From Syntrophales bacterium (GTDB taxonomy: Bacteria > Desulfobacterota > Syntrophia > Syntrophales > UBA2210): 64,000 nt of DNA. The stretch covers positions 1,075-65,074 of the forward strand of contig JALNXD010000001.1 of the NCBI GenBank assembly GCA_023230565.1, written 5' to 3'. The notes under the pieces are model-generated. The model saw nothing but the letters and a program-made list of their open reading frames with translations, was not told where the DNA came from and searched no databases. Both the position numbers and the translations under genes were made by a program. Positions 3,719-60,220 of the stretch are shown here, in pieces (the first letter of the stretch is position 1; each line of letters begins with the position of its first letter).

Positions 3719-4450
3719 ATGATGACGAAACCCACTTCAACAACTCGGATAGATCATCTTATCGAAGAGCAAGTACTTAAGTGGCAAAAAGCAAGCGACC
3801 GGAGAAAAAAGAAAAGCGAACCTCCTCCGCCCGTCATTACCATCTCACGGCAATCAGGAAACGAATCCGCAGCTTTGATAAGCAAAATTTCTGAAGAATT
3901 GAAACTTGACATATTCGACAACCAGATAATTCACGAAGTTTCCCAAAGCGTAAAAATGAGCGACAGAGTTGTGGAATCTTTGGATGGAAAAACGAGAAGT
4001 ACCCTGGATAACTGGATTCAGTTTTTAAAAGCCAACCGCTATATATTTCCGGATACATACCTTACCCACTTGACCAAGGTCATTGGAACCATCGGCGAAC
4101 AGGGGGGCGCCATAATCCTGGGAAGAGGTGCAAATCACATTCTTCCGCCTGAAGAAACGCTAAGACTCCGGTTAATAGCACCGCTGGGACATCGTATTCA
4201 GAATGTAGCCAAGAATGAAAGCATTTCTATTGAAGCGGCAGAAAGGCAGATAACAAAAAAAGAATCGGAGCAGCGCGCTTTCATAAAAAAATATTTTGAA
4301 GTCGATATTGACGATCCTATTTACTATGATCTAATTATAAATACTCAATTCTTAAGTTCTGAAAAGATAGTAAATCTGATCAAGGCATCGGTGAAATACA
4401 AAAAACTTCCCGCGCGACGCCGCTTTGATAAAAAACCGGAAGGCGAATGA
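3719..4450 (+). CDS. Cytidylate-kinase-like family protein (uncharacterised AAA/NMP-kinase-like)
   Basis: The segment PVITISRQSGNESAALISKISEELKLDIFDNQII resembles the cytidylate kinase-like family. Start placed at the ATG at 3719, which follows a strong RBS (AAGGAGG, 3706-3712) rather than the upstream TTG at 3683. Confidence 0.55.
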   Translation: MMTKPTSTTRIDHLIEEQVLKWQKASDRRKKKSEPPPPVITISRQSGNESAALISKISEELKLDIFDNQIIHEVSQSVKMSDRVVESLDGKTRSTLDNWIQFLKANRYIFPDTYLTHLTKVIGTIGEQGGAIILGRGANHILPPEETLRLRLIAPLGHRIQNVAKNESISIEAAERQITKKESEQRAFIKKYFEVDIDDPIYYDLIINTQFLSSEKIVNLIKASVKYKKLPARRRFDKKPEGE

Positions 4451-4586
4451 GCTGAAAGAGGATCTCGCAGAGATGCCTGTGGAGAAACGGGCTGAATCAC
4501 ATACACGCCCATGACTTTTGCTTTGCAAACCCGTTGCACTGCTTTTATTCCTGAAACCTGCTTGGGAACCCCGAGGAGGGTGTGGC

Positions 4587-5423
4587 ATGAAAACTATTCT
4601 GGTTCCTACTGACGGTTCCGAATATAGTAAAACCGCCCTTGAATATGGAATATATCTGGCATCACTCTTTGGCGCCACGTTGAAAGGACTTTGTATAGTA
4701 GATGCCAAGGTAATACAGGGCCCGTTGTTCAGCGATATATCCGGATTTGCCGGCCTTACCCCTTCACAGGATTTCCTCTGGTCCATAGAAAAAGGACTCG
4801 ACGAAAGGGCTTCCTCCATTCTCGAAGATTTCTCTCATCGCTGCTATCAGCGAAATGTCTCCTCATTGACGACAAAGACCACGGGACTTATTGATGAAAC
4901 CATTATTGAAGAGAGCAAGGATGCAGACTTTATAATTCTTGCACAAAGAGGAGAACATTTTAAACTTACAGGGGGAGGGCTCATGGGCTCAACAGCGGAA
5001 TCTGTAGTGAGAAAATCAGGAAAGCCCGTCTTCATCACTCCCTATAGTTTTCAACAAATAAATGGAGTCGGCCTTGCCTATGACGGAAGCGATCCCGCCT
5101 TCAATGCGTTAAAACTCTCAGCAGATATTCTCCCAATCACAGGGTGGGCATTAACGGTGATAATAATTTCAGAAGACATGGATCATAGCCGATATCTTTC
5201 GGAACAGGTGAATTCATATCTAAAAATGCATAAGATCGAAAGCATTATCGTTGTCCGCTCAGGCAAGGAAGAACAGGAGTTAATCCGTTTTATAGAAGAA
5301 GGTTCTATTCAGCTTCTTATAATGGGCGCCTACGGGAAAAGCAGGATTAAAGAATTCATTCTTGGCAGCACAACAGCCTCAGTCATAAGGAAGAGTGCAG
5401 TACCGGTTCTTATGGTGAAATGA
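4587..5423 (+). CDS. Universal stress protein, tandem UspA domains
   Basis: Two Usp repeats (MKTILVPTDGSEYSKTAL... and a second half ending GSTTASVIRKSAVPVLMV). ATG at 4587 is preceded by the RBS GAGGAGGG. Confidence 0.8.
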   Translation: MKTILVPTDGSEYSKTALEYGIYLASLFGATLKGLCIVDAKVIQGPLFSDISGFAGLTPSQDFLWSIEKGLDERASSILEDFSHRCYQRNVSSLTTKTTGLIDETIIEESKDADFIILAQRGEHFKLTGGGLMGSTAESVVRKSGKPVFITPYSFQQINGVGLAYDGSDPAFNALKLSADILPITGWALTVIIISEDMDHSRYLSEQVNSYLKMHKIESIIVVRSGKEEQELIRFIEEGSIQLLIMGAYGKSRIKEFILGSTTASVIRKSAVPVLMVK

Positions 5424-5462: not shown

Positions 5463-6233
5463 TTATAAAACAAAGTCTTTTAAAGAATGCCTTACTTCCC
5501 CTATGGCAGTATGACACGTAAGGTCATGCTGAATCGGTGTAATTGATATATACCCTTTGCTGAGTGCCCATGCATCAGATTCCATGCTTTCTTTCTCCGG
5601 GAAGAGAGTTTCTCCTGCAAGCCAATAATAGGTATTTGACCTGGGATCAAGTCTTTTTTCAAAGACTTCCACCAGTCGCGCAGCGCCCTGTTTGGTTACG
5701 GCAATTCCTTTAATCCCGTTCTCAGGGAGAGATGGAATATTCACATTTAGCGTCAAACCGGCAAATGCTTTTTTTTCTATCAAATACGTTACAAGGCGAG
5801 AGGAAAAACGGGCGGCATAGGAAAAATCCGATTGACCCCTCCGGGTATCCAGAGAAATAGCCATTGAAGGAACACCCAGAATGGCGCCTTCGGTGGCCGC
5901 CGATACTGTTCCAGAATAAAGCATGTTGAATCCTACATTTGCCCCCGCATTGATACCGGATATTATGAGATCCACAGGCCTGTCGGTAAGCTCTTTTATT
6001 CCGATTTTCACACAGTCGGCAGGGGTTCCTGTTACGGCATGCCCCAGAAATGAACCTCCTTTCCTTGCACTTCTGACCCGTAAAGGACGATAGAGTGTTA
6101 TGGCATGGCCTACTGCACTTTGCTCAGTCTCAGGCGCCACAATTATGCATTCGGCCACTTTTGACAGCTCGTGAAACAGGGCTGAAAGCCCCTCCGCATA
6201 TATGCCGTCATCATTTGTTAACAAAATCAACAT
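5463..6233 (-). CDS. surE: 5'/3'-nucleotidase SurE
   Basis: Canonical SurE N-terminus MLILLTNDDGIYAEGL, plus GINAGANVG and YSGTVSAATEG motifs. 256 aa. Confidence 0.9.
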   Translation of the reverse strand: MLILLTNDDGIYAEGLSALFHELSKVAECIIVAPETEQSAVGHAITLYRPLRVRSARKGGSFLGHAVTGTPADCVKIGIKELTDRPVDLIISGINAGANVGFNMLYSGTVSAATEGAILGVPSMAISLDTRRGQSDFSYAARFSSRLVTYLIEKKAFAGLTLNVNIPSLPENGIKGIAVTKQGAARLVEVFEKRLDPRSNTYYWLAGETLFPEKESMESDAWALSKGYISITPIQHDLTCHTAIGEVRHSLKDFVL

Positions 6234-6323
6234 TTACAATCCTCTATTTTTTAAGAACCATCTCTGAACCCGGTTTTTAAAACACTTTGCGAGTCCATCG
6301 ATTCTGAAATCCGTAATCAGTAA

Positions 6324-8234
6324 TTACCTGATTTGAATGATTTCACCATCTAAAATTGTAAGTATGTAAAGCTCTTTTTCAGCATCACCGGTTTCGGAAA
6401 AATCGGTAATTCCCGTAACTCCTCTGTAGTTTCTCAGTTCCAGAAGTCGATCGCGCATTTCTCTTCGCGTATTCGCATTTCCCTCATTGATAATATCAGC
6501 GACAATGCGTGCCGCATCATACGAAAGCGCTTCAATTCCATCAGGTACCCTTCCATATGCCGTATAAAATCGATCCATAAAATCGATCACCTCATGATAA
6601 TAACTTTTCTGGAAAAATACATCAGTAAAAACAGCGCCTTCCAAATACTCGCTTTCGCCATCTAAAAGATCCTGAGTGTTCCAGCTGCTCATCCCAAGCA
6701 ATCGTATTCCTTCAACATTGTAAAAGGCAAGTTGCGGTGCAATCATTTGGGCCTTGATTGCAGAACCGACGATAAAAAGGGCATCGAAATCAACGATCGG
6801 TATTGAATCTTTTTCTTTTGCCTTTTTTGTGATATCGACGCTCGTAAGGCGTTTGATCTCTTCCCCGAAATCCGTTGTATTCTCATCATAAGCTTCAGCA
6901 GCTCTGATTTCGCCTCCCCGCTTCACCACTTCATCCCAGAACAGGTTCATGATCTCCGATCCATAGGATGTATCAGGATACAAGACGGCAAAATGCCTTA
7001 CTCCCAAATTGTAAAGAGCATAGCTGACCAGATTTTGAATTTCTTTACGGCTGGTCAGAAAATTTCGAAAAACATACTCACCAATCGTCGTGATAGTATC
7101 GTGCTGTGTGAGGGTTATGATGGGAACCTTCAGTTCATGGGCTTTATGAGCAGCCGATATTGCCGCGGTGCTTCCCAGAGGGCCCATAATGGCAATTACC
7201 CGGTCTTGCGTTGCAAGCAATTCCACTGCACGCGCTGCTTCCGAAGGATCACTTTTTGAATCCCTTACAACAAGCCTGACTGGATGTTCACTTACTGAGT
7301 CAAATATCCCCATTGCCAATTTTAATGCATCCAGCACTTTTGAACCGTAAGGCGCATACCGCCCGGAAAGCGGAACAATGCAGCCTATTGAAAATTTATC
7401 TATATCCCGTTGTTCCTCTTCGGCTATTATCATCCGGTAGAGAGACTCTGCCGTATCATATCCAGGATGCTCCTGGTGGACAGCAAAAAAATCCGCCAAG
7501 GCCATCTTTGCCTTTTCGAACTCTTCTATTTCCGCATAAAGAGCGCTTAATCTGATGAGAATAAATCCCCCCGGATACGCATGTTCGCATTCTTTCCTTA
7601 TATTCTCCAAATCTTCAAGTGTGAGAGTTTCTATTATCTCTTCTATTTGTTCTTTCGCACGGGTTAAAAGAGAAGCCGGGGGATTCTCATCAAGAACATC
7701 GGTGTATGAAATAAGGGCCTCCTGCAATCTGTTCTCCCGGCGATAGTTATCACCCAACATATATTCAATCTCAGGCTTTCTGTGTGTAATTGTTTCCTTC
7801 TCTTTCAGGGCCAACAATATTTCGATCGATTTACTGTATGATCCCAGTTGCATATAAGAGAAGCCTTGCCAATAGAGACCCTCCAAATAAATGGAATCAT
7901 TTGGGGCTGGCTGAGGGATGGTGCCGAGCACCTCAAGTGCTTCGCCATACTGCCCGGTCGTGGCAAAGATCTGACCTTTTCTTAAACAAATCCAGGAAAG
8001 GACTTTCCCTCGGGGATCTTTAGTAAGCGCAATATCGAAAAGACGCAAAGACTCGCTGAATCGTTCGTTTTTAAACGCATTTTCCGCTTTTTGAATATAA
8101 GGTCGGATTTCAAGCGGAATTTCTTCCGGTGCGAGCGTCGGCTCTAGCACCGGGGGTTTTTCAATTACAGTCGCACAGGAAAATAAAAGCATTACAAGTG
8201 CTGCAACAATAGCCATTTCCTTATTCAGCCTCAA
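6324..8234 (-). CDS. Lipoprotein with N-terminal TPR region and C-terminal type-I periplasmic binding fold (LpoA/LppC-like penicillin-binding-protein activator family)
   Basis: Lipobox LLFSC after a signal peptide. TPR-like helical repeats occupy the first ~250 aa. They are followed by a Leu/Ile/Val-binding-protein-like domain (IGCIVPLSGRYAPYGSKVLDALKLA...). 636 aa. Confidence 0.5.
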   Translation of the reverse strand: MRLNKEMAIVAALVMLLFSCATVIEKPPVLEPTLAPEEIPLEIRPYIQKAENAFKNERFSESLRLFDIALTKDPRGKVLSWICLRKGQIFATTGQYGEALEVLGTIPQPAPNDSIYLEGLYWQGFSYMQLGSYSKSIEILLALKEKETITHRKPEIEYMLGDNYRRENRLQEALISYTDVLDENPPASLLTRAKEQIEEIIETLTLEDLENIRKECEHAYPGGFILIRLSALYAEIEEFEKAKMALADFFAVHQEHPGYDTAESLYRMIIAEEEQRDIDKFSIGCIVPLSGRYAPYGSKVLDALKLAMGIFDSVSEHPVRLVVRDSKSDPSEAARAVELLATQDRVIAIMGPLGSTAAISAAHKAHELKVPIITLTQHDTITTIGEYVFRNFLTSRKEIQNLVSYALYNLGVRHFAVLYPDTSYGSEIMNLFWDEVVKRGGEIRAAEAYDENTTDFGEEIKRLTSVDITKKAKEKDSIPIVDFDALFIVGSAIKAQMIAPQLAFYNVEGIRLLGMSSWNTQDLLDGESEYLEGAVFTDVFFQKSYYHEVIDFMDRFYTAYGRVPDGIEALSYDAARIVADIINEGNANTRREMRDRLLELRNYRGVTGITDFSETGDAEKELYILTILDGEIIQIR

Positions 8235-9110: not shown

Positions 9111-11042
9111 TTATTTCACTTCTTCAAAATCTGCGTCAACTACATCTTCATCTCCTTTGCCTGCTCCCGCCTGTCCCGCACCGGCAGCTGGGCCTGCGCC
9201 CGCTCCTTGATCCGGGCCTTGACCCTCGGTTTTGGAAGATGCTTTTGCATACATTGCCTCAGCCAATTTGTGAGATGCCTGCGTCAGTTCCTCTTGAGCC
9301 GAACTGATGGCAGCGAGATCATCTCCTTCCATCGCTTTTTTCAATGCCGATATCTTACTTTCTATATTGGATTTTTCCCCTGCATCAATCTGTTCTCCCA
9401 TATCTTTGAGATTTTTTTCCACACTATATACTAACGTATCGGCTTGATTCCTGGCCTCGATCAGATCCTTCTTCCTCTTGTCCTCTTCTGCATTCGCCTC
9501 CGCATCTTTTACCAGCTTTTCAATTTCCTCTTCCGTAAGTCCGCTTGAGGAGGTTATTTTTATACTCTGTTCCTTGCCCGTACCGAGATCTTTCGCGGAT
9601 ACATGCACGATTCCGTTTGCATCTATATCAAAGCTGACTTCAATTTGCGGAACCCCTCGAGGCGCGGGTGGTATTCCTGTCAATTCGAATCGGCCAAGTG
9701 TCCTGTTGTCGGCCGCCATGGGGCGTTCACCCTGAAGGACGTGAATACTTACAGCAGGCTGATTATCGGCGGCAGTTGAAAATACCTGGCTTTTTTTCGT
9801 TGGGATTGTTGTATTTTTTTCGATGAGTTTCGTCATGACCCCCCCTAAAGTCTCGATTCCAAGAGAAAGGGGAGTTACATCAAGCAGCAGTACATCTTTC
9901 ACATCACCCGCGAGAACTCCCGCCTGAATGGCGGCGCCTATCGCCACTACTTCATCAGGATTGACTCCTTTATGCGGTTCTTTGCCGAAAATTTCTTTTA
10001 CCTTCTGCTGAACTTTGGGCATTCTGGTCATTCCGCCCACAAGTATGACCTCATTAATGTCCTTTGGGCTAAGTCCTGCATCTTTGAGTGCCTGCTTGCA
10101 CGGTTCTTGAACCCGGTCGACCAGATCCGATACGAGCATTTCTAATTTAGCTCTGGTAATTTTTATATTCAGATGTTTCGGTCCCGATGCATCGGCCGTT
10201 ATGAACGGAAGGTTAATATCCGTTTCCATGGAGCTTGACAACTCCATTTTTGCTTTTTCGGCAGCCTCTTTAATCCTCTGGAGGGCCATTTTATCGTTTC
10301 TCAGATTGATTCCCTGATCTTTTTTAAATTCATCAGCCACATAATCTATCAGCCGCTGATCAAAATCCTCGCCTCCCAAGTGAGTATCGCCATTTGTGGA
10401 TTTTACCTCAAAAACGCCGTCTCCCAATTCAAGTATGGAAATATCGAAAGTTCCGCCGCCTAAATCGAAAACCGCAATTTTTTCGTCTTTCTTTTTATCA
10501 AGACCGTAAGCAAGTGAAGCGGCCGTCGGTTCATTGATGATCCTCAGAACATTCAATCCGGCAATACGGCCCGCGTCTTTTGTTGCCTGTCTCTGCGAAT
10601 CGTTAAAATAGGCAGGCACTGTTATGACTGCATCGGTAACTTTCTCGCCAAGATAATCCTCTGCGGTTTGCTTCATCTTCGTTAGAACCATCGACGATAT
10701 TTCTGCCGGACTGTAATTTTTTCCCTTGATAGTTACCTGTGCATCGCCGTTTGGCGCTTCAGTGATTTTAAAGGGGCTGATCGTAATATCATACTGGACT
10801 TCTTTCGAAGAATACCTCCTTCCGATCATTCTTTTAATGGCGTATACCGTATTTTCCGGATTCGTTATCGCTTGCCTTTTAGCAGTCTGTCCGACTAATC
10901 TTTCTCCGCTGTCAGTGAAGGCGACAACAGAAGGCGTAGTTCTGTTCCCCTCTTGATTTGCTATTACTACAGGATCTCCTCCTTCCATGACGGCAACACA
11001 GGAATTTGTCGTCCCGAGATCAATGCCTATGATTTTTGCCAT
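9111..11042 (-). CDS. dnaK: Molecular chaperone DnaK (Hsp70)
   Basis: [22 protein letters not shown]..., DLGGGTFD and the full-length Hsp70 architecture. 643 aa. Confidence 0.98.
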
Positions 11043-48209: not shown

Positions 48210-48866
48210 TTATGTTTCCAGCGAAGTCAAGCCTTCCCGGATCGCATACTTGACCAGTTCCGATATGCTATGGATATTAAGCTTCTCCATGATATTGCGC
48301 CGGTGTGTCTCTACCGTCTTGACACTAATGTTAAGGTGGTAGGCGATCTTTTTTGTACTCATCCCCTCTGCGAGAATCTGGAGTATCTCCCGCTCGCGCG
48401 GTGTAAGATTCGTGAATACCGATGATTCGCTTCCTGGCGATTTACCGATATAACGGTTCACTACTATCCCGGCAATCGTAGGGCTGAGATAGATTTGATT
48501 CGACATAACTGAGCGGATCGCTCGCACCAGTTCCTCGAATGCACAATCTTTCAGCAAATATCCCGATGCACCCGCTTCAAGCATACCTGAAACGAATCGC
48601 CTGTCCGAATACATTGAAAGTGCAATAACTTTTACTTTCGGATTCTCACGAATAATCACTCGCGTCGCATCTATTCCGTTCATATCGGGCATTGCGATAT
48701 CCATAATGATTACATCCGGCGATAATTCATGCGCCAGGCGCACTGCGGAACGGCCATCCTCGGCCTCCGCAACTACTTCCATTCCGGGTTCGCTTCCGAT
48801 GAGCGTCCGCAGGCCATCCCGCACTATCTTATGATCTTCAGCCAATAATATTTTTGCATTACTCAT
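48210..48866 (-). CDS. Two-component response regulator, NarL/FixJ (LuxR-type HTH) family
   Basis: Receiver domain (ILLAEDHKIVRDGL...VIIMDIAMPDMNGI) plus LuxR HTH (LTPREREILQILAEGMSTKKIAYHLNISVKTVETHRRNI). Confidence 0.9.
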   Translation of the reverse strand: MSNAKILLAEDHKIVRDGLRTLIGSEPGMEVVAEAEDGRSAVRLAHELSPDVIIMDIAMPDMNGIDATRVIIRENPKVKVIALSMYSDRRFVSGMLEAGASGYLLKDCAFEELVRAIRSVMSNQIYLSPTIAGIVVNRYIGKSPGSESSVFTNLTPREREILQILAEGMSTKKIAYHLNISVKTVETHRRNIMEKLNIHSISELVKYAIREGLTSLET

Positions 48867-51260: not shown

Positions 51261-52469
51261 TTAAACTCCTGGAAGCCCTACAATTCCGACGAAAATAGCA
51301 CACCCGTCGGGGCTTCCTCCCAAATTGTGCGTAAGCCCGAGTTTGGGGTTGGCAAGCTGTCTTGAAGGAAAGCCCGGGTTGAGCAGTTCATCCGCCCTCC
51401 CCTGAAGCTGCAAATACATTTCATACAACATGCGCAATCCGCTTGCCCCTATTGGATGCCCGAAACACTTTAACCCTCCGTCAAGTTGTACCGGCAATCC
51501 TCCGTCAAGATCAAAAAAGCCATTTTCGATATCGTCTCTGACCTTTCCACGGGGACTGAATCTGAGGTCTTCCATCGTAACGGCTTCAGTGATGGAAAAA
51601 CAATCATGAACTTCTGCCATGCTGATTTCCTCACGCGGGTTTTTAATACCCGCTTCCTTATATGCAGCTTCCGCAGCTCTTACTGTCGCTTCAACGTGCA
51701 GGAAATCATAGTTGGTATTGAAATTGCCATCTCGGGGCGCCATTGAAATTTGCAGCGCCTTTACATACACAGGGTCTTTCCTCATGCTCTGAGCTATTTC
51801 AGGTGTAGTAATAATCGCCGCTGCCGCTCCATCGCTTACTCCGCAACAATCAAATAAACCGAGCGGCCAGGCAACCATAGGAGCATTGAGAATCGTATCC
51901 ATACTGACATCTTTCTGGAAATGAGCGTTTTTGTTACGCATACCATTTTGATGGCTTTTCCATGACACTCGCCCTATCATGTGTTTGCCTTCTTCGAAAC
52001 TAAGCCCGTATTTTGAAAAATATGTAGTTGCAAGCATGGCGAACTGCCTCGGAGGCGTGCTTTCTGCCTCCATGGCATGCGAAGGTCCAGGTGCACCACC
52101 ATCACCCAAACCGCTGATTCCGCTATCTTTGAATTTGTCGACCCCGACGGCAAGTACCATATCGTAAATGCCGGCAGCCACGGCATAACAAGCATTCCTG
52201 AATGCATCAGAGGCAGTTGCGCAGGCATTCTCAACCCTTGTAACTGGAATGTATTGAAGCCTCAGAGGCTCGGAGAGAACCATTCCTGTCATGCCGGTTG
52301 CTGTTCCCAGCCAGGCCGCCTGAATATCTTTGGTTTCGATTCCGGCATCTTCGTAAGCCTGATAGACCGCCTCTACTATCATGTCGGCGGCACTGACATC
52401 CCAGCGTTCACCGAATCTTGTGCAACCCATTCCCACAATGGCTACCCTGTCCTTAATACTTCCTGGCAT
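51261..52469 (-). CDS. Thiolase, SCP-x/archaeal type (thiolase-domain protein)
   Basis: VAIVGMGCTRFGE, active-site Cys in VENACATASDA, and C-terminal GHPIGASG and NLGGS motifs. 402 aa. Confidence 0.85.
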   Translation of the reverse strand: MPGSIKDRVAIVGMGCTRFGERWDVSAADMIVEAVYQAYEDAGIETKDIQAAWLGTATGMTGMVLSEPLRLQYIPVTRVENACATASDAFRNACYAVAAGIYDMVLAVGVDKFKDSGISGLGDGGAPGPSHAMEAESTPPRQFAMLATTYFSKYGLSFEEGKHMIGRVSWKSHQNGMRNKNAHFQKDVSMDTILNAPMVAWPLGLFDCCGVSDGAAAAIITTPEIAQSMRKDPVYVKALQISMAPRDGNFNTNYDFLHVEATVRAAEAAYKEAGIKNPREEISMAEVHDCFSITEAVTMEDLRFSPRGKVRDDIENGFFDLDGGLPVQLDGGLKCFGHPIGASGLRMLYEMYLQLQGRADELLNPGFPSRQLANPKLGLTHNLGGSPDGCAIFVGIVGLPGV

Positions 52470-52488
52470 ATTCGGACCTCCTTTGCTG

Positions 52489-53925
52489 TTAATCTCTCAC
52501 CGGCTTACACTTCCAGAAATAGGTATGTGTGCCTTGAGTATATTGCAATTTTCTGAAAGTCATTTCCACTTTCATCCCAACACTGCATTCATCTGGCTCA
52601 CGGTCTACCATATTAAACTGGCCGCGGCCTCCCCCTTCAAAATCAATGACTGCCGCTGTTGTAGGCGGATCGGTGCCGGCCGCAAGAAAATCATGACTGA
52701 AGCTGGCTACCTGCCCCCTTCTGTTTGCAAAGCGGTATGGTTCAAATTCATCTTTTCGGCCACAATTAAGACAAATTCGCGCTCGAGTAGAGGAGGAACT
52801 GAGGTAAAGCTGAGGAGTGCCGCAATTTTTGCACTTCACCCCGTAAAGCGGCAGTGCCGTAGAATGCTCTCTCCATTGTGCCGACATTGAAGCGGCTCCC
52901 GCCGGGGGGCGTGGCGGAGGTGCTATGTCCACCATATCGCGCCATCTCAGATATCTTCCATAATTATCTAATGTTTTTTTGATCTTGAGGTGTCTTTTTA
53001 TTCCTCTTCTACCTCTGATGTTATCGATTTCTTCATTTACCCTGAATATTATGGCATCACTCCCATTGCCCCAACTTACCAGTAAAATCCGATCACCCGG
53101 CTTTGCATCCTCAAGCGCGCCTATCAGAATCATCAAAGGCTGTGCCGTACCGGTATTCCCCACATCTGCGAGCAATGGATCCTGTATTTGCTCCTTGCTG
53201 AATCCCATTTTTGCGGCCAGCGCCGCATGGCTCCTCAAATTTGCTCCGCAAAGACATAACCTGGAAATGTCTTCTTTTTTGAGTCCGCATTTCTTCATCG
53301 CCCCGGCAGCAGCCTCGACAGGTAATCTCATATAACCCTCTTCTCTGCCGAATCGATCTTCCCAATGCCGCACATAAGTATCCTCGTGCGATCTCCAGTA
53401 GTCCGCCAGGTCTTCAGACAAGCAGTGATATGCTTCTATTTCAACAGCAACATTATTACTGCCAAAGAGCAACGCACCACTTCCATCTCCAAAGTCCTGC
53501 TCATCCTCACCAGCCGCTCCTGCAAGCCGCATGTCGGCAGCAGTAACAAGAACCGATTTGAGTGTACCTGCCTCTACAGAATCAAGAGCAGCCATAATAG
53601 CATTTGTTCCGGCTCTCAAACAGTTTGCAAAGTCTGTATTCCTGGCCGCTTGGGGAAGATCGAGCGCTGTTGCCACAATCGTTGAATTTTGCCGCTCTTT
53701 GTAGGGCGCACAGGTTGTTGCAAGGAAAAGCGCTTCGACTGTTCTAGGATCCACGTCTCTCAAACAGTCTAATCCTGCGGCAACAGACATCGTGATAGGG
53801 TCTTCATCAAAACCGGCCACTGCCTTCTCCCCGCGTCCCCCTTTCGCATCCCACATTTTTCCGATTGCAGCCCGGGGCAGTCTGTAGTATGGGATATACG
53901 CTCCGTATGATATTATTCCTGCCAT
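52489..53925 (-). CDS. HMG-CoA-synthase-like condensing enzyme fused to a C-terminal DUF35 (zinc-ribbon + OB-fold) domain
   Basis: N-terminal ~340 aa are HMGCS-like (IISYGAYIPYYRL, Cys in DFANCLRAGTNA, VGNTGTAQ). The C-terminal ~125 aa hold the zinc ribbon CKNCG...CLNCG and an OB-fold segment (VASFSHD...VIDFEGGGRGQFNMVD...VGMKVEMTF). Confidence 0.8.
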   Translation of the reverse strand: MAGIISYGAYIPYYRLPRAAIGKMWDAKGGRGEKAVAGFDEDPITMSVAAGLDCLRDVDPRTVEALFLATTCAPYKERQNSTIVATALDLPQAARNTDFANCLRAGTNAIMAALDSVEAGTLKSVLVTAADMRLAGAAGEDEQDFGDGSGALLFGSNNVAVEIEAYHCLSEDLADYWRSHEDTYVRHWEDRFGREEGYMRLPVEAAAGAMKKCGLKKEDISRLCLCGANLRSHAALAAKMGFSKEQIQDPLLADVGNTGTAQPLMILIGALEDAKPGDRILLVSWGNGSDAIIFRVNEEIDNIRGRRGIKRHLKIKKTLDNYGRYLRWRDMVDIAPPPRPPAGAASMSAQWREHSTALPLYGVKCKNCGTPQLYLSSSSTRARICLNCGRKDEFEPYRFANRRGQVASFSHDFLAAGTDPPTTAAVIDFEGGGRGQFNMVDREPDECSVGMKVEMTFRKLQYTQGTHTYFWKCKPVRD

Positions 53926-54097: not shown

Positions 54098-54518
54098 CAT
54101 TCTTTGGTTGTTGTGTTGCTGAGTGCCATGACCTGCCGGGCGCATATGTCTGAGCTGCCGCGCGCGAGTGTGCCGGGAACGCTTCACGAGATGCTGCATG
54201 GTCGGAAAACAGATCTGAACGGGCAATCTCATGCCCGTAATTGGAAAGTCAATACGCTCTCGCATCACTTACTTAGAAGCTCCAGAGGCAAGGCGCGCGA
54301 ATCACGGAGAATGAGGCATATGTCGAGGTACTCCGCAGTTACGAAGGATTATGCATAATGCAGCATCGGACTTTTACAAAAGCTTTAACGTTAATGGGCA
54401 AAGGTATTGCCTTTCAATCCCTGGCGTATTTGTGCTTTCTTAATGAGAGTCTCTTTTTAAATTGATCTTATTATGATATAGAATATTCCATCACCAATTT
54501 GAGAGGAGGTGAATCAGC

Positions 54519-55304
54519 ATGAACTCACAAGATATAGAAGCGAAAATTGATGCCGCAGCAGCTGCAATTGTTGCTTCAAAACGTATTGTAGTCTTTACGG
54601 GAGCCGGGGTCAGCACGGAATCCGGAATACCTGATTTCAGAAGTCCCGGGGGAATTTGGACAAAATTCGATCCTGAAGATTTTACGATCGAGAAATTTCT
54701 TACCAGCAGAGATTCAAGAAAAAAACAATGGGAAGTTCTCCTCGAAGGGGGTCTTTTTGGAGCCGTGGCGCCGAATCCTGCCCATTATGCCATTGCACAG
54801 CTCGAAAAACTTGGAAAACTTGACTGTATAATAACGCAGAATATAGATAACCTTCATCAGAAAGCGGGAAATTCGCCCGATATTGTATTTGAACTTCATG
54901 GTAACATGCAGTGGGTCATCTGTATGCATTGCGGCAAAAGATATTCAACAGAAACAATCATTGAAAAGTTGCAATCAGGAATCGAGATTCCTGATTGCGA
55001 TCACTGCCTGGGCATATTAAAACCTGATGTAGTTTTCTTCGGTGAATCGCTCCCCTTTTTAATATTGAATACCGCAATTGAGCGTTCAAAAAAAGCGGAT
55101 CTTTTCATATCCATCGGTTCTTCCCTTGTGGTGACTCCGGCAGCTTACATGCCTTCATACGCACTTGAATCGGGAGCAAAATTAATAATCGTCAATATTG
55201 GCGAGACCTCTCTCGATAACAGAGCGCATATTCTCATCAATGGAAAAGCGGGAGACGTAATGACAAGAATATTGGAAAAGGTAAGTACATATCTGTGTGT
55301 CTGA
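54519..55304 (+). CDS. cobB: NAD-dependent protein deacylase, Sir2/CobB family
   Basis: GAGVSTESGIPDFRSPGGIW, QNIDNLH, catalytic His in FELHGN, and the Zn ribbon CMHCG...CDHC. RBS GAGAGGAGG upstream. Confidence 0.9.
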   Translation: MNSQDIEAKIDAAAAAIVASKRIVVFTGAGVSTESGIPDFRSPGGIWTKFDPEDFTIEKFLTSRDSRKKQWEVLLEGGLFGAVAPNPAHYAIAQLEKLGKLDCIITQNIDNLHQKAGNSPDIVFELHGNMQWVICMHCGKRYSTETIIEKLQSGIEIPDCDHCLGILKPDVVFFGESLPFLILNTAIERSKKADLFISIGSSLVVTPAAYMPSYALESGAKLIIVNIGETSLDNRAHILINGKAGDVMTRILEKVSTYLCV

Positions 55305-56086
55305 TTGTAATTGCATATAAAGTCAATGCGAATTATCCGCTCGTCATTGCCGCGAACCGGGACGAATTCTACAATCGTCCATCTGAAGCGGCATCATTCT
55401 GGCCGGATGCCCCTAATGTGCTTGCCGGACGTGATCTGAAAGGGGGCGGCACGTGGCTTGGGCTGACATCCGAAGGTCGCGTAGCGGCCATTACAAATTT
55501 CAGGAACCCGACCCTCGCCAAATCAGGAGCCCCGTCAAGAGGGCTTCTTGTAAGTAATTATCTCCGCGGCTCATCAAAAGCTGAAGAATATTTGAAAGAA
55601 ATCCAGCATGAAGCTGCTGCCTACAATGGTTTCAATCTAATCGCCGGCGATCTCTCCCGGCTTTTTTGCTTTTCAAATATAAATAATTCTATTGTACGCA
55701 TCACCCCGGGGATTCACGGATTGAGCAACCACCTTCTCGATACGCCCTGGCCGAAAGTGACACGCGCAAAAAAGCTTTTAATGGATGCTGTCACCGGCAT
55801 CGAAAAGCCATCGCCTCAGCTGATACTGGAAATCCTCTCCGATACGCTGCATCCTCCCGATGAAGAGCTTCCGGATTCAGGGATAGGTCTCGACTGGGAA
55901 AGAATGCTCTCACCTCTTTTCATATCAAGTTCCTGCTATGGAACGTGTTCGTCGACAGTAATTCTTGTCGACATGAATATGAAAGCGACATTTATGGAAA
56001 GGGTTTCGGAAACCGGATATACAAAACCCGGTACAAAGACTTTTTCTTTCGACCTCTCCGCTGATCGCATTTCGAAGGATCTTTAA
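55295..56086 (+). CDS. NRDE-family protein (DUF833; TANGO2 homologue)
   Basis: N-terminal MC (GTG start at 55295, MCLIVIAYK) and the eponymous AANRDEF motif. Overlaps the sirtuin gene by 10 nt. Confidence 0.8.
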   Translation: MCLIVIAYKVNANYPLVIAANRDEFYNRPSEAASFWPDAPNVLAGRDLKGGGTWLGLTSEGRVAAITNFRNPTLAKSGAPSRGLLVSNYLRGSSKAEEYLKEIQHEAAAYNGFNLIAGDLSRLFCFSNINNSIVRITPGIHGLSNHLLDTPWPKVTRAKKLLMDAVTGIEKPSPQLILEILSDTLHPPDEELPDSGIGLDWERMLSPLFISSSCYGTCSSTVILVDMNMKATFMERVSETGYTKPGTKTFSFDLSADRISKDL

Positions 56087-56087
56087 A

Positions 56088-56515
56088 ATGACGCCAGAAA
56101 GCAGGTATCCCACACAGCCGCAGGTAGGTGTGGGGGCAGTGGTTATCAAAGACGGCTCAATACTGCTTGTAAAAAGGGGCCGGTCTCCGGGCATAAATCT
56201 CTGGGCGATCCCGGGCGGACGGATTAATCTCGGAGAAACGCTTAAAAAAGCTGTAGAACGGGAAGTAGAGGAAGAAACAGGAGTGCTCATACGTGCAGGC
56301 GACCCGATCTATACATTTGATTTTATTGAGCGAGACAAAAAAACCGCATAGTGTTCCACTATGTAATAGTCGACTTCTACGGTCAGTACCTCAGTGGAGA
56401 TCCATGCGGGAATGATGATGCTCTTGAGGCAAAATGGATCAAGAAAGAACAGTTGAATAGCCTTGAAATCTCCCGTAATATGCTACACCTGCTTAAAATT
56501 ATTAATTTTTGTTAA
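56088..56515 (+). pseudogene. Nudix hydrolase interrupted by a frameshift in an A7 run (pseudogene, sequencing error or recoding site)
   Basis: The frame-3 ORF (56088-56351) has a complete Nudix box GGRINLGETLKKAVEREVEEETGV but stops at a TAG at 56349. The C-terminal half (VFHYVIVDFYGQYLSGDPCGNDDALEAKWIKKEQL...) continues in the -1 frame to the TAA at 56513-56515. One extra A in the run at 56337-56343 would give the contiguous sequence ...ERDKKNRIVFHYVIVDF... Confidence 0.7.
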
Positions 56516-56589: not shown

Positions 56590-57045
56590 TTACAGGCTAT
56601 AAATCTTTTTACCCGGCAAAATTACGAAACCATTTTCCTGCAGTGCGGCGATCGCCTCTTCCGTGCGGTCAAACCTGAATATAATAATGGCATTTTCCCC
56701 GCTTCTTTCAACGAAAGCGTAAGTATATTCTATATTAATACCTTTCCGGGAAAGAGTTTCAACGATACTGTGAAGTCCCCCTGGCCTATCAGGAATCTCG
56801 ACTGCTACCACGAATGAGCGACGAACAGTAAACCCTTCATCTTGAAGACTTTTTTCAGCCCGCTCCGTATCGTTGACGATAAGTCTCAAGATACCGAAAT
56901 CTGAAGTATCTGCAAGTGACAATGCACGGATATTGATATTAGCATTTTTAAGAACTCTCGTTACATACTCGAGCCCTCCCGGCTTATTTTCCAGAAATAT
57001 TGAAATTTGTTCTACTTTCATATCTTCCTCCCGGTCAATTTTCAA
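56590..57045 (-). CDS. ACT-domain protein (tandem ACT), partner of the aryl-CoA ligase
   Basis: Two ACT-like beta-alpha-beta-beta-alpha-beta units ([15 protein letters not shown]...; [12 protein letters not shown]...). The start overlaps the PaaK stop by 4 nt. Confidence 0.75.
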
Positions 57046-58343
57046 ATCCGGCGCTTGTCAATTACACGCTGGGCCTTCCCTTCAAAACGCTCCAGAGTTT
57101 TTGCTTCCACTAGTTTGACCGCCGCTGTCACACCAAGATAATCTTTGATATCTTTTGTAATGCGCCTTTCAATTTGCTGAAGTCCCCTTACCTGGTCCGA
57201 AAATATCTTCTCACTGACTTCCACCCTTATTTCAAGGGTATCAAGAGTGCCCTCTCTTTCTACAATAAGCTGATAATGCGGTTCCAGTCCTTCTATCCCC
57301 AAAAGAACGCTTTCAATCTGCGATGGAAAGACATTGACCCCCCGGATGATCAGCATATCATCACTCCTTCCAGAAACTCTTGCCATCCTTGTAAGAGTTC
57401 TCCCGCACCGGCACGGTGTCCTTACAAGCTTCGACAAATCGCGTGTACGATACCTGATCAACGGGAAGGCCTCTTTCGTAAGTGTGGTAAATACCAATTC
57501 CCCTATTTCACCATTTTTTACCGGTGATCCGGTAGCTGGATTTATTGCCTCTACAATAAAATGATCTTCGAATACATGAAGGCCGCTTCTGCCTTCTTTG
57601 CATTCTATTGCAACACCGGGACCGATAATTTCCGACAGACCGTAAATATCCAGAGCTGTTATACCTAAACGCTCCTCTATTTCTTCCCTCATCTGCTCAC
57701 TCCAGGGTTCCGCACCCAGTATGCCTACTCTGAGCCTGAGTGATTTCATATCCACACCCATCTCTTCCCCTTGCTCTGCCAGATAAAGTGCATAAGAAGG
57801 AGTGCAGCATATAGCCGTAGGGCCAAAGTCCTGTAATATCAGGATCTGTTTTTTCGTACTTCCGCCTGACATTGGAATAACACTCGCACCAAGTCTCTCC
57901 GCTCCATAATGAGCACCCAGTCCTCCTGTAAACAGTCCATACCCGTAAGCATTATGAATGATGTCGTTCCTGGTGAGACCTGAAGCGACAAAAGATCGAG
58001 CCATTAAAACCGACCACGTATCAATATCTCTTTTCGTATATCCGACAACGGTGGGTTTTCCTGTTGTGCCCGATGATGCATGAAGCCTTATAACATTTCC
58101 CATTGGAACAGCGAAAAGCCCGAAAGGGTAATTATCCTGCAGGTCCTTCTTTGTTGTGAATGGAAGACGCCTGATATCATCGAGTGTCTTTATATCATCC
58201 GGCGTAACGCCGGCTTCGTCAAAGGCATTCCGGTAAAACCCTACTGTATGATACACCCGTTCAGCGACCTGCTGAAGTCTCTTCAATTGAAGTGCTTCCA
58301 GTGCCTCCCGCGGTAATGTTTCAAACTCCTCATCAAAAATCAT
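57042..58343 (-). CDS. paaK: Phenylacetate-CoA ligase family (PaaK-type aryl/arylalkyl-CoA ligase)
   Basis: [21 protein letters not shown] (AMP-binding P-loop), [11 protein letters not shown], and C-terminal [11 protein letters not shown]. 433 aa. Confidence 0.85.
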
Positions 58344-58411: not shown

Positions 58412-60220
58412 CTATTGGCCGTAAAGAGCTTCAATTTCATTTCCATATTTCTCCAGCACTATTCTTCTTTTCAGTTTCATCGTCTGAGTCAGGGTTCCGT
58501 TTTCAAGTGAAAATCCTTCTTTGAGATAGAGAAACTTTTTTGGAATTTCGTAGTGTCCGTACTTCCCTTCGAGACTTTTCGTAACTGCATCGCCGATTAT
58601 CTCCTGAATCTCTTCATTTGCAATCATTTCGGCCTGGCTGCCGGGAAGCCCTCTTTCCCGGGCATACTTCTCAAGGACTGTAAAATCAGGGACTATCAAG
58701 GCAACCGTATACGCTCGGCCTTCTCCAAAAATCATGGCCTGCTCCACAAACGGAACAAGTTTTATATCCTCTTCAAGAGAAGCCGGAAATACAAATTTAC
58801 CGTTCTCAAGCTTGAATTGTTCCTTGATACGTCCTGTAATATATAAAAATCCGTCATCATCAAGCCGTCCCCGGTCGCCTGTCCGAAATCCTCCATCGGG
58901 GGTCATCACTTTTTCAGTCTCCTCAAGTTTATTATGATATCCTTTCATAACATTCGGGCCGTACACGATAATTTCACCGTCATCTTTTTCGGGATCTCCC
59001 AGGCTTTTATCTATCACCACCCGAACCTTGTCGATGGCCTTTCCCACGCTTCCCAGACGATTTTCCGAAGGGGAGTTGATGGTAACCGCCGGAGATGTTT
59101 CAGTCAAGCCATAGCAGTCATATGTAGGGATTCCTATGTCACAGAAAAAATGTGCAATTTCGATATTCATCACGGCACTTGCCGTCAAGGCACCTTTTAA
59201 ACGGCCTCCAAAGCGCTTGCGTATTTTAGAAAAAACCAACGTATCGGCAATAGCGAATTTCGCGTTTACCAATGCATTTGATTTACCATTCGCCGCAAGC
59301 TCTCTTCTTTTTTTTGCACTTTCGACTCCCATGACAAATAATTTTTTTGCCAATCCGCCTTCCTCATTCATCTTTGCCCATAATGCATCATATACACGAT
59401 TGAATATCCGGGGTACCGCAATGAGAAATGTCGGTTTTACCTTCCCGAGATCTTCTGCAATCGTATTGACATTCTCTGCCAGTCCCATGGAGGCTCCCAA
59501 ATGAATAAAAGAATAGAGGTCTGCTGTCTGACCGTATGAATGGGCCCAAGGCAGGATAGGAAGAGTACGGTCGTTTTCTCCGAATTCCGGATACAGTTTA
59601 GTCGCCGCAAGGGCATTACTGGTAAAATTGCCATGACTCAGAAGAACGCCTTTGGGTTCTCCCGTCGTTCCCGAAGTGTAGATCAAAACGGCAATATCCC
59701 CGGCATCCGGATGAATTGAGGGAACCGGATTCGCCTCTCCCACTTTTTCGAGATTCTCCATAGTTTCCCCGCCTTCGCCCTCAATGATGAATACACGCTC
59801 AAGCGTTGGTATTTCTTTTTCGAAGTTCCTGATTTTTTCGTAAATTTCAGGTTTTGAAACAAAAAGGATCTTAAGAGCGCTATCGGTTATTATATACTTC
59901 CAGATATGAATCAGCTCCGCTTCATACATGGGAACATAGCGTGCACCGAGACCGTAGGCGGCAAAGGCTATGACCGCCCATTCCTCTCTATTGTTTGCAA
60001 TAATGCCCACAGCATCTCCCGCGGCAATACCGAGTGATGCGAGCCCTCCTCGAAGATTATCCACTCTTCGGGCAACCTCAGCATATGTACTCCATCGGTA
60101 TTCTCCATCCGGCCCTTTTGTCCCGAAAAGAGGGTTACGGCTGTGACGGGAAACGCTTCCTTCAAACAAATCGACCAGATTATCCGGTTTATCAAGTTGG
60201 TACACAGGCTCCCTCCTCAA
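58412..60220 (-). CDS. Long-chain-type AMP-forming acyl-CoA ligase (FadD/FAA-like)
   Basis: YTSGTTGEPKGVLLSHGN, YGLTETS, TGDRGRLDDDGFLYITGR, and a C-terminal motif A10-like TQTMKLKRR. 602 aa. Confidence 0.85.
   Translation of the reverse strand: MRREPVYQLDKPDNLVDLFEGSVSRHSRNPLFGTKGPDGEYRWSTYAEVARRVDNLRGGLASLGIAAGDAVGIIANNREEWAVIAFAAYGLGARYVPMYEAELIHIWKYIITDSALKILFVSKPEIYEKIRNFEKEIPTLERVFIIEGEGGETMENLEKVGEANPVPSIHPDAGDIAVLIYTSGTTGEPKGVLLSHGNFTSNALAATKLYPEFGENDRTLPILPWAHSYGQTADLYSFIHLGASMGLAENVNTIAEDLGKVKPTFLIAVPRIFNRVYDALWAKMNEEGGLAKKLFVMGVESAKKRRELAANGKSNALVNAKFAIADTLVFSKIRKRFGGRLKGALTASAVMNIEIAHFFCDIGIPTYDCYGLTETSPAVTINSPSENRLGSVGKAIDKVRVVIDKSLGDPEKDDGEIIVYGPNVMKGYHNKLEETEKVMTPDGGFRTGDRGRLDDDGFLYITGRIKEQFKLENGKFVFPASLEEDIKLVPFVEQAMIFGEGRAYTVALIVPDFTVLEKYARERGLPGSQAEMIANEEIQEIIGDAVTKSLEGKYGHYEIPKKFLYLKEGFSLENGTLTQTMKLKRRIVLEKYGNEIEALYGQ

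Follow-up and report, generated by a model that had tools for sequence, protein, structure and literature searches.

The sequence analysed here is a stretch of 64,000 nt (hereafter the window) from contig JALNXD010000001.1 of a metagenome-assembled Syntrophales genome (GCA_023230565.1), and its subject is a group of three genes on the plus strand that encode a sirtuin (Sir2), a protein of the NRDE/TANGO2 family and a Nudix hydrolase (Table 1). The trio is predicted to be a tightly coupled, evolutionarily conserved operon: the GTG start of the NRDE gene overlaps the stop of the sirtuin gene by exactly 10 nt, at 55295–55304 (CTGTGTGTCTGA), with the shared bases read as CTG TGT GTC TGA at the end of the sirtuin and as GTG TGT CTG A.. 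at the start of the NRDE protein, and the ATG of the Nudix gene at 56088 lies 1 nt past the NRDE stop codon (56084–56086). An AGGAGG ribosome-binding site lies 5' of the sirtuin gene. A promoter and terminator scan of the region gave site counts no higher than in shuffled sequence, and an Rfam scan in and around the operon gave no structured RNA or riboswitch match at E ≤ 0.1. When the open reading frames and the raw sequence were consulted, the gene positions and the 10-nt overlap through the GTG at 55295 proved to be as a first-pass annotation of this DNA had given them; the same annotation had taken the Nudix gene to run from 56088 to 56515 as one gene, of which the start and strand stand and the end is reached only by reading across a frameshift.

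Sir2 enzymes deacylate lysine in an NAD+-dependent reaction that yields nicotinamide and 2'/3'-O-acyl-ADP-ribose. The window sirtuin is a canonical full-length NAD-dependent deacylase, of predicted activity: it matches the whole of PF02146 (model positions 1–180 of 180), scores 266 bits against NF001753 (NAD-dependent protein deacylase), passing the cut-off of 243, and has Sir2-Af2 (1ma3, E = 3e-59) and Sir2Tm (1yc5) as its best solved relatives. An NCBI protein assigned to a Syntrophales metagenome-assembled genome is 100% identical to it. The motifs GAGVSTESGIPDFR, TQNIDNLH and ELHGN and the zinc-site pairs CMHC and CDHC align with those of the two relatives, and the catalytic and zinc-binding motifs are complete (the NAD pocket GAGxS...PDFR, QNID, the catalytic histidine and the four-cysteine zinc site). 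A sirtuin subfamily dedicated to NRDE was considered and is ruled out by sirtuins of Chloroflexota and Dehalococcoidia that are about 62% identical and have no NRDE neighbour. In three such loci (L083, L084, L085; 4072–5789), the 62%-identical sirtuin is divergently paired with a biotin/lipoate ligase of the BPL_LplA_LipB family, a pairing that recalls the lipoamidase activity reported for some sirtuins.

The NRDE protein matches PF05742 over model positions 1–254 of 257, starts with MCLI and carries the NRDE motif at residues 21–24; its alignment to human TANGO2 (9bwa/8sv7) has an E value of 4e-45. The AlphaFold2 model (predicted local distance difference test 87.3; predicted template-modelling score 0.88) reaches a template-modelling (TM) score of 0.85 to human TANGO2, and Foldseek returned human TANGO2, next acyl-CoA:isopenicillin-N acyltransferase, where CoA stands for coenzyme A, and then HslV and proteasome subunits. 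The modelled structure thus has the alpha-beta-beta-alpha fold of N-terminal nucleophile (Ntn) hydrolases, with Cys2 as the putative nucleophile, and both the cysteine after the initiator methionine and the Ntn-hydrolase-like fold, which had been anticipated in the first-pass annotation, agree with the alignment and the model. Residues C2, N21, R22, D23, E24, N68, N145 and K154 are 100% conserved in operon-linked and unlinked NRDE proteins alike (82 sequences). The two groups have 82 identically conserved alignment columns in common and none that is conserved differently, and a neighbour-joining tree intersperses them; an operon-specific NRDE subfamily is therefore excluded, and the linked proteins are ordinary members of the family because no column distinguishes them from the unlinked ones.

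Human TANGO2 is reported to bind CoA as well as C16/C18 acyl-CoA, in a manner that depends on the NRDE motif (PMC11867700). It has also been put forward as a Cys-Ntn hydrolase whose cavity suits substrates above 500 Da, with fatty-acid amide derivatives as proposed substrates, and a substrate is known for no member of the TANGO2/NRDE family (PMC13044924). Bacterial TANGO2 homologs, such as Shewanella HtpA, have been reported as heme-trafficking proteins (PMC10470608), and the heme role is contested for the eukaryotic homologs (PMC12782551; PMC13044924).

Table 1. Positions of the trio and of adjoining features in the window.
Feature	Position	Strand	Evidence or remark
Sirtuin, Sir2-family NAD-dependent protein deacylase, 261 aa	54519..55304	+	PF02146, E = 6e-53
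NRDE/TANGO2-family protein, 263 aa	55295..56086	+	PF05742, E = 6e-74
Nudix hydrolase, 5' part, frame 1	56088..56351	+	Nudix box GRINLGETLKKAVEREVEEETGV; premature TAG 56349–56351
A7 homopolymer, break point of the Nudix frame	56337..56343	+	
Nudix hydrolase, 3' part, -1 frame, NRIVFHYVIVDF...LLKIINFC	56342..56515	+	TAA 56513–56515
8-bp hairpin GCAUAGUG-UUC-CACUAUGU	56346..56364	.	Minimum free energy -13.8 kcal/mol, z = -2.2
Weak promoter-like candidate TTTAAA-17-TAGAAT	54456..54484	+	35 nt 5' of sirtuin start
ACT-domain pair protein, convergent context	56590..57045	-	PF19571, E = 8e-27
PaaK-type aryl-CoA ligase, possible sirtuin target	57042..58343	-	TIGR02155, 620 bits (cut-off 646), and PF14535
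FadD/ACSL-type long-chain acyl-CoA ligase, possible sirtuin target	58412..60220	-	PF00501, E = 8e-73, and PF23562

Recurrence and extension of the gene order in related genomes

The gene order was surveyed in species-representative (GTDB) loci, taking the 80 most similar of at least 593 NRDE matches (45–56% identical to the NRDE protein of the window). Of these 80 loci, 12 have a same-strand Sir2 gene immediately before NRDE, and 13 have Nudix immediately after it; in two of the 13, NRDE is near the contig start and its upstream side is unseen. The loci with the Sir2-NRDE pair are labelled Syntrophales, Syntrophaceae, Smithella or unclassified "delta" only; the link is confined to Syntrophales-like lineages. 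The neighbourhood of NRDE with Sir2 and Nudix genes, which the first-pass annotation took as a clue to the NRDE family, thus holds as a recurrent pattern within these lineages and does not hold family-wide, and its description of the trio as one compact unit is sustained by the same gene order in many related genomes, beyond chance.

A second survey was taken from the Nudix side in metagenome loci, 41 of which had at least 2.6 kb upstream, 61 enough sequence downstream and 35 both flanks. Sir2 and NRDE were both found upstream in 28 of the 41. The architectures among the 35 loci with both flanks were Sir2, NRDE and a histone-deacetylase-like (HDAC-like) gene in 13; Sir2, GNAT, NRDE and the HDAC-like gene in seven; Sir2 and NRDE only in three; and none of these in ten, and the Nudix-only metagenome loci had no recurrent partner gene. 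At the Sir2-NRDE junction (40 loci), the 10-nt overlap recurs in five, a gap of 9–28 nt occurs in 14, and a gap of about 540 nt with an inserted gene in about 13, while the NRDE-Nudix junction is 30 nt or shorter in 22 of 37 loci.

The trio is still found in relatives at about 50% protein identity, and its flanks fall into at least six different contexts, so that it appears to have been kept while its surroundings were reshuffled. For instance, L002, whose NRDE protein is 59% identical to that of the window, has the same Sir2-NRDE overlap and an intact Nudix gene of 145 aa, followed by ACT, PaaK, FadD, TetR and RND genes, and a different left flank; complete or partial trios are also present in L087, L088 and Smithella sp. 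ME-1.

The fuller form of the operon is Sir2-[GNAT]-NRDE-Nudix-[short HDAC-like deacylase], of which the window copy is a reduced version. The HDAC-like gene (PF00850, E = 4e-37; 248 aa) lies 3' of Nudix in ten loci from genomes and in 28 of the 61 from metagenomes; the zinc and catalytic motifs of its product are intact, and its closest relatives are enzymes of class IIb type (HDAC6, HDAH, APAH). Examples of 247–248 aa are found at 7256–8002 in L023, at 6001–6747 in both L169 and L170 and at 9441–10184 in L087; in the sources the protein is named AcuC-like or acetylpolyamine aminohydrolase, and it is at least 78% identical over 120 database clusters. A search for it aimed at other phyla returned almost only homologs at or above 78% identity, nearly all of them from Smithella, Syntrophaceae or Deltaproteobacteria, and no independent context. 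The GNAT gene (PF13302, E = 4e-20; RimJ/L-like) lies between Sir2 and NRDE in L044 and L062 (5474–6010 in each) and in eight of the 41 metagenome loci. Within the 64-kb window there is no HDAC-like gene and no GNAT gene.

Some relatives show how the unit is placed and altered. In Smithella sp. ME-1 (GCA_001483165.1), the four-gene cluster follows aroDE-aroA-aroK-aroC-tyrA on one strand and lies near mnmE-jag-yidC. L087 (Sir2 74% identical) is in an intermediate state, with the convergent ACT-PaaK pair inserted between Nudix and the HDAC-like gene, and in L021 NRDE directly adjoins the HDAC-like gene, without Nudix between them. The acyl-lysine theme of the locus is strengthened by this set of relatives because they add an HDAC-type deacylase and sometimes a GNAT to the unit.

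Other genes were also found in or around the unit. In L019 (5527–5895), a DUF559 (Vsr-like endonuclease) gene, probably a selfish insertion, lies between Sir2 and NRDE, and in L137 (3778–4452) and L157 (3924–4586) an opposite-strand LuxR-type response regulator replaces NRDE between Sir2 and Nudix; a similar regulator is encoded at 48210–48866 of the window. A TrpF-like phosphoribosylanthranilate isomerase gene (NF002298, E = 1e-32) lies between NRDE and Nudix in L148 (4273–4968) and L168 (about 4270–4968); such an enzyme acts on a ribose-5-phosphate-amine adduct, and the insertion may or may not relate to ADP-ribose breakdown. In L017, a Syntrophaceae genome, Nudix and a weak HD_4 (RelA/SpoT-type HD) domain stand in one stop-to-stop frame at about 6800–7633, which suggests a possible HD-Nudix fusion protein.

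NRDE genes also have recurrent neighbours of other kinds. In Desulfobacterales, NRDE divergently adjoins a thiolase (acetyl-CoA acetyltransferase) gene in ten loci (L008, L028, L029, L030, L048, L051, L053, L072, L075 and L080), which gives the family another acyl-CoA setting, specific to that lineage. In six loci of Cytophagales (L047, L050, L055, L073, L074 and L077) a NudE/YffH-like Nudix gene is divergent from an rnhB-NRDE pair; this Nudix, of the ADP-sugar type, is unrelated to the operon Nudix, and none of its family scores reaches a cut-off.

The frame of the Nudix gene and the flanking genes

The Nudix box GX5EX7REUXEEXGU is matched perfectly (G-RINLG-E-TLKKAVE-REVEEETGV), and with one base restored the protein matches PF00293 with E = 7e-19. 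In the window, the coding sequence is broken: frame 1 stops after 87 aa, and the remainder of the domain is encoded in the -1 frame, the shift falling within the A7 run. With eight A's or with a -1 slip, the product would read ERDKKNRIVFHY, equal in length to the orthologs, which are intact at 143–147 aa. At the break L002 reads GAC TCT GAA GGC CGC ATT, encoding ...ERDSEGRIRYHY, and the window reads GAC AAA AAA A-C CGC ATA. The identical A7 is carried by L001, an independent 10-kb contig from another JGI sample that aligns to the window without gaps over 8979 nt and differs from it at two of them (99.978% identity). The 3' part is open and keeps all of the invariant residues H91, V95, D96, Y101, G104, D110, D111, A112 and W117; for this reason, the break is a very recent 1-nt deletion, a homopolymer error common to both assemblies or a slippage-dependent site. 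A hairpin begins 2 nt after the A7 run; programmed frameshifting has a low probability because this hairpin is not in the L002 ortholog and the slippery phase is non-canonical. Seen from the minus strand, 56337–56364 resembles a terminator, with a hairpin and then T7, some 230 nt past the end of the convergent ACT gene, and the site may be a pseudogene lesion, a homopolymer error common to the assemblies, a place of slippage or a terminator serving the convergent genes.

Of the proteins whose function is known, NadM-Nudix enzymes come closest to the Nudix protein, through their ADP-ribose pyrophosphatase domains (E about 1e-14 to 1e-10, scores far below the family cut-offs; NCBIfam, PDB). The best PDB match, 4dyw, has no assigned function. 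A Nudix of the CoA type is considered unlikely, since the sequence preceding the Nudix box does not seem to fit the NuCoA signature.

Downstream of the trio, the convergent ACT-PaaK pair and FadD-like ligase that the first-pass annotation had pointed out, with the C-termini EGKAQRV and TMKLKRR, were confirmed; the FadD-type ligase has the C-terminal sequence ...TQTMKLKRRIVLEKY, and the window therefore holds a deacylase together with ligases that carry a C-terminal GK or KxK lysine. The closeness of these ligases to the trio, which it had emphasised, is not a general feature: they are convergent and not co-transcribed with it, the arrangement is that of one sub-lineage, and the Smithella-type operon follows shikimate genes instead. 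The ACT-PaaK pair lies beside the trio only in L002, L087 and L097, which belong to the sub-lineage of the window, and the FadD-like ligase only in L002. Since the adjacency is convergent and specific to a sub-lineage, it is no evidence that the ligases are sirtuin targets. Acyl-CoA ligases as order-wide partners were likewise rejected, an AMP-forming ligase being found beside NRDE in L005, L027 and L092, too few given the abundance of such genes. It is nevertheless plausible that the lysines at the A10 position of such ligases are sirtuin substrates in Syntrophales.

The left flank contains a Liv-type ABC transporter, two family-III CoA-transferases and a PAS histidine kinase with a LuxR-type response regulator, as well as an SCPx-type thiolase and a fusion of an HMG-CoA-synthase-like domain to DUF35, making the neighbourhood rich in acyl-CoA enzymes. 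The fusion (51261–53925, minus strand) joins the HMG-CoA-synthase-like part to a DUF35/zinc-ribbon OB part in 478 aa, directly upstream of the SCPx-type thiolase, and seems to be a fused form of the thiolase, HMGCS and DUF35 genes, which are separate elsewhere.

A possible acyl-lysine repair pathway and its rivals

The setting of the locus would be the management of lysine acylation in organisms rich in reactive acyl-CoA thioesters. It has been reported that Syntrophus aciditrophicus, a member of the Syntrophales, has abundant acyl-lysines derived from the acyl-CoAs of the benzoate pathway, that its benzoate-CoA ligases carry five acyl types on the A10 lysine, and that one of its two sirtuins removes glutaryl, succinyl and butyryl groups (PMC8942843); that sirtuin may or may not be the ortholog of the one in the window. 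The reading favoured here, at a probability of roughly 0.4, is that the locus is an acyl-lysine repair or housekeeping module in which Sir2 deacylates, NRDE strips acyl-ADP-ribose and Nudix cleaves ADP-ribose. That the operon is a functional acylation-control unit is probable; that NRDE removes the acyl group from the sirtuin product O-acyl-ADP-ribose is a tentative and rather doubtful assignment.

The pathway would begin with established chemistry, the removal of lysine acyl groups by Sir2 with NAD+, and its likely substrates would include the A10 lysine of AMP-forming acyl-CoA ligases. The NRDE protein would then take the acyl group off O-acyl-ADP-ribose by means of Cys2, giving ADP-ribose and the free acid; this step is proposed because of the coupling to Sir2, the gene order, the Ntn fold with its acyl-enzyme and the ADP-plus-acyl shape that O-acyl-ADP-ribose has in common with acyl-CoA. 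The Nudix enzyme, judged by family resemblance, would cleave ADP-ribose to yield AMP and ribose-5-phosphate. The fuller operon of relatives would bring an NAD-independent deacylase (the HDAC-like enzyme) and an acyl-transferase (the GNAT) into the same unit, and all five of its members have to do with acyl groups on amines or with the nucleotide by-products that result. In the genome considered here, the HDAC-like gene is not at the locus, and the Nudix step may be lost, or may need frameshifting, because the Nudix gene has a 1-nt frameshift.

A broader and quite improbable form of this reading is that NRDE/TANGO2 proteins in general are the missing O-acyl-ADP-ribose processors, which would use the N-terminal cysteine to pass the acyl group to water as the free acid or to CoA (an O-acyl-ADP-ribose:CoA acyl-transferase, acting in salvage). 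At the same low probability, long and dicarboxylic acyl groups, which macrodomains would handle poorly, would be the special concern of such enzymes. Because the linked NRDE proteins are unspecialised and all putative catalytic residues are common to the family, the activity could extend to mitochondrial human TANGO2; if true, this would account for the binding of acyl-CoA and CoA by TANGO2 and for the CoA-related features of TANGO2 deficiency.

Several points weigh against the repair module. The operon itself is a prediction from gene order and spacing, and since all the functional evidence is guilt by association within one order, a single ancestral arrangement could explain the link. The sampled NRDE loci of Desulfobacterales, Bacteroidota, Bacillota, Acidobacteriota, Betaproteobacteria and Gammaproteobacteria have no Sir2 or Nudix link, the Chloroflexota sirtuins stand without an NRDE neighbour, and the operon-linked NRDE proteins form no distinct subfamily. 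As for the Nudix enzyme, it scores above the cut-off in no curated ADP-ribose pyrophosphatase model, and it is dispensable in some loci (L026 and L088 are Sir2-NRDE only) and frameshifted in the window. Ntn hydrolases classically cleave amides, not esters. Direct biochemistry on the TANGO2/NRDE family is limited to acyl-CoA binding and disputed heme binding, and the known O-acetyl-ADP-ribose deacetylases are macrodomain proteins (PMC8556138).

The nearest rivals keep the acyl theme and give NRDE another substrate. NRDE could act on acyl-CoA itself, as a thioesterase, a sink or an acyl-transferase that works through S-acyl-Cys2, thereby lowering reactive acyl-CoA while Sir2 and the HDAC-like enzyme mend the damage and Nudix clears ADP-ribose independently. 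This combination of prevention and repair, considered unlikely, agrees with the NRDE-motif-dependent binding of C16/C18 acyl-CoA and CoA by human TANGO2 (PMC11867700), with the use of acyl-CoA as the acyl donor by the nearest fold relative of known function, with the ten thiolase-paired loci of Desulfobacterales and with the acyl-CoA enzymes around the trio in the window; it leaves unexplained why NRDE is coupled to Sir2 and placed between Sir2 and an ADP-ribose-type Nudix, and acyl-CoA hydrolysis by TANGO2 goes unmentioned in PMC11867700. NRDE could also be a third deacylase, a Cys-Ntn amidase for acyl-lysines or N-acyl amines whose acyl groups would be poor substrates for Sir2 and the HDAC-like enzyme. 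Amide cleavage is what Ntn hydrolases do by precedent, and fatty-acid amide derivatives have been put forward as TANGO2 substrates (PMC13044924). The operon already has two unrelated amide-cleaving deacylases, and in L021 NRDE adjoins the HDAC-like gene with no intervening Nudix; yet a buried N-terminal nucleophile pocket is better suited to small molecules, and Nudix would be left without a role tied to NRDE. To our knowledge, no Ntn hydrolase acts on protein lysines, and this third-deacylase role is given little credence.

A different kind of rival denies the common pathway. The gene order may simply have been inherited, with NRDE serving an unrelated role such as heme trafficking, as for Shewanella HtpA; the restriction of the link to one order, the position of the Smithella cluster behind shikimate genes and near mnmE-jag-yidC, an ordinary housekeeping region, and the reports of bacterial TANGO2 homologs as heme traffickers (PMC10470608) speak for it. 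On the other hand, the trio persists, at about 50% protein identity, across at least six reshuffled contexts, with start and stop codons that overlap, the genes inserted in or added to it encode acyl-transfer or deacylation enzymes and are not random, and the heme role is disputed for the eukaryotic homologs (PMC12782551; PMC13044924), so inheritance without a shared pathway is regarded as a rather improbable account. A Sir2-based anti-phage defence system that depletes NAD+ was also considered. Sir2 and Nudix domains occur in defence and counter-defence systems, and the Nudix protein matches the candidate PADLOC model PDC-S07; however, the sirtuin has the full length and make-up of a canonical deacylase, with Sir2-Af2 and Sir2Tm as its nearest solved relatives, the flanks are of the housekeeping type, the locus is stable across species and sensor or effector partners are absent. 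The PADLOC scan gave only marginal 33-aa local matches for Sir2 and none for NRDE, and the defence reading is effectively refuted.

The acyl-lysine repair module thus remains the favoured interpretation, and the operon clue is stronger than the first-pass annotation implied, being conserved and extended by deacylation genes, yet narrower, being confined to one order. In the full-text literature, a search that was not exhaustive found, among the matches listed, no publication that joins TANGO2/NRDE to a sirtuin, Nudix, operon or acylation context, and the papers on TANGO2 structure, acyl-CoA binding and bacterial HtpA give no sirtuin, Nudix, HDAC or operon context for the family, nor do they derive a pathway from gene neighbours. 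The parts are all from known families and the logic of a deacylase with product clean-up is already known; the Sir2-NRDE-Nudix linkage itself is, as far as this literature goes, undescribed. Mutations of TANGO2 lead to a severe disease of metabolism and the heart. What the protein does biochemically is under active debate, its proposed roles (heme transfer, acyl-CoA binding, Ntn hydrolase) being in conflict, and the operon context shortens the list of candidate substrates for TANGO2-type proteins to O-acyl-ADP-ribose, acyl-CoA and acyl-lysine. In addition, the operon is a candidate protein-deacylation repair module for syntrophic bacteria, in which lysine acylation by pathway acyl-CoAs is unusually heavy.

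Comparison with known systems

In the acsA/acuABC and SrtN system of Bacillus subtilis and the Pat/CobB system of Salmonella, a deacylase (a sirtuin, an HDAC-type enzyme or both) and a GNAT act on the A10 lysine of an AMP-forming ligase encoded beside them (PMC8556138); the B. subtilis cluster also includes an ACT/CBS protein, AcuB. The Syntrophales operon resembles these systems in that Sir2, HDAC-like and GNAT genes come together in one operon in relatives, and an ACT-domain protein and a PaaK ligase lie alongside in the sub-lineage of the window, AcuB also having a predicted ACT domain. The differences are that NRDE and Nudix form part of the operon core and have no counterpart in acuABC or pat/cobB; that the operon GNAT is RimJ/L-like, unlike AcuA and Pat; that the HDAC-like protein is short (248 aa) and of class IIb type, unlike the class I AcuC; and that the ligase adjacency is not conserved across Syntrophales.

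The SirTM-MacroD operons and the O-acetyl-ADP-ribose deacetylases YmdB/MacroD offer a second parallel, in that the gene of a sirtuin is accompanied by that of an enzyme for its ADP-ribose-containing product, the role proposed here for NRDE and Nudix (PMC8556138). No macrodomain gene is present among the Pfam assignments of the window locus, L002, L087, L088, L169 and L170. Unlike the class M, ADP-ribosylating SirTM, the window sirtuin is of the canonical deacylase type, and unlike macrodomains, the candidate processor has a Cys-Ntn fold, which is not known to process O-acyl-ADP-ribose.

As for the NRDE protein, it belongs to the same family and fold as human TANGO2 (8sv7, 9bwa) and Shewanella HtpA, with the N-terminal cysteine, the NRDE motif and the putative catalytic Asn, Asp, Asn and Lys in common; the function of human TANGO2 is contested between acyl-CoA binding, a proposed Ntn hydrolase activity and a disputed role in heme. 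It is also like acyl-CoA:isopenicillin-N acyltransferase (2x1d/2x1e) in its N-terminal cysteine nucleophile, which in that enzyme forms an acyl-thioester from acyl-CoA, a donor that contains ADP as well as the acyl group (PMC13044924). The identity between the two is only 13–14% and the TM score about 0.5, and whereas isopenicillin-N acyltransferase is a self-cleaving precursor, the NRDE protein would expose Cys2 by loss of the initiator methionine.

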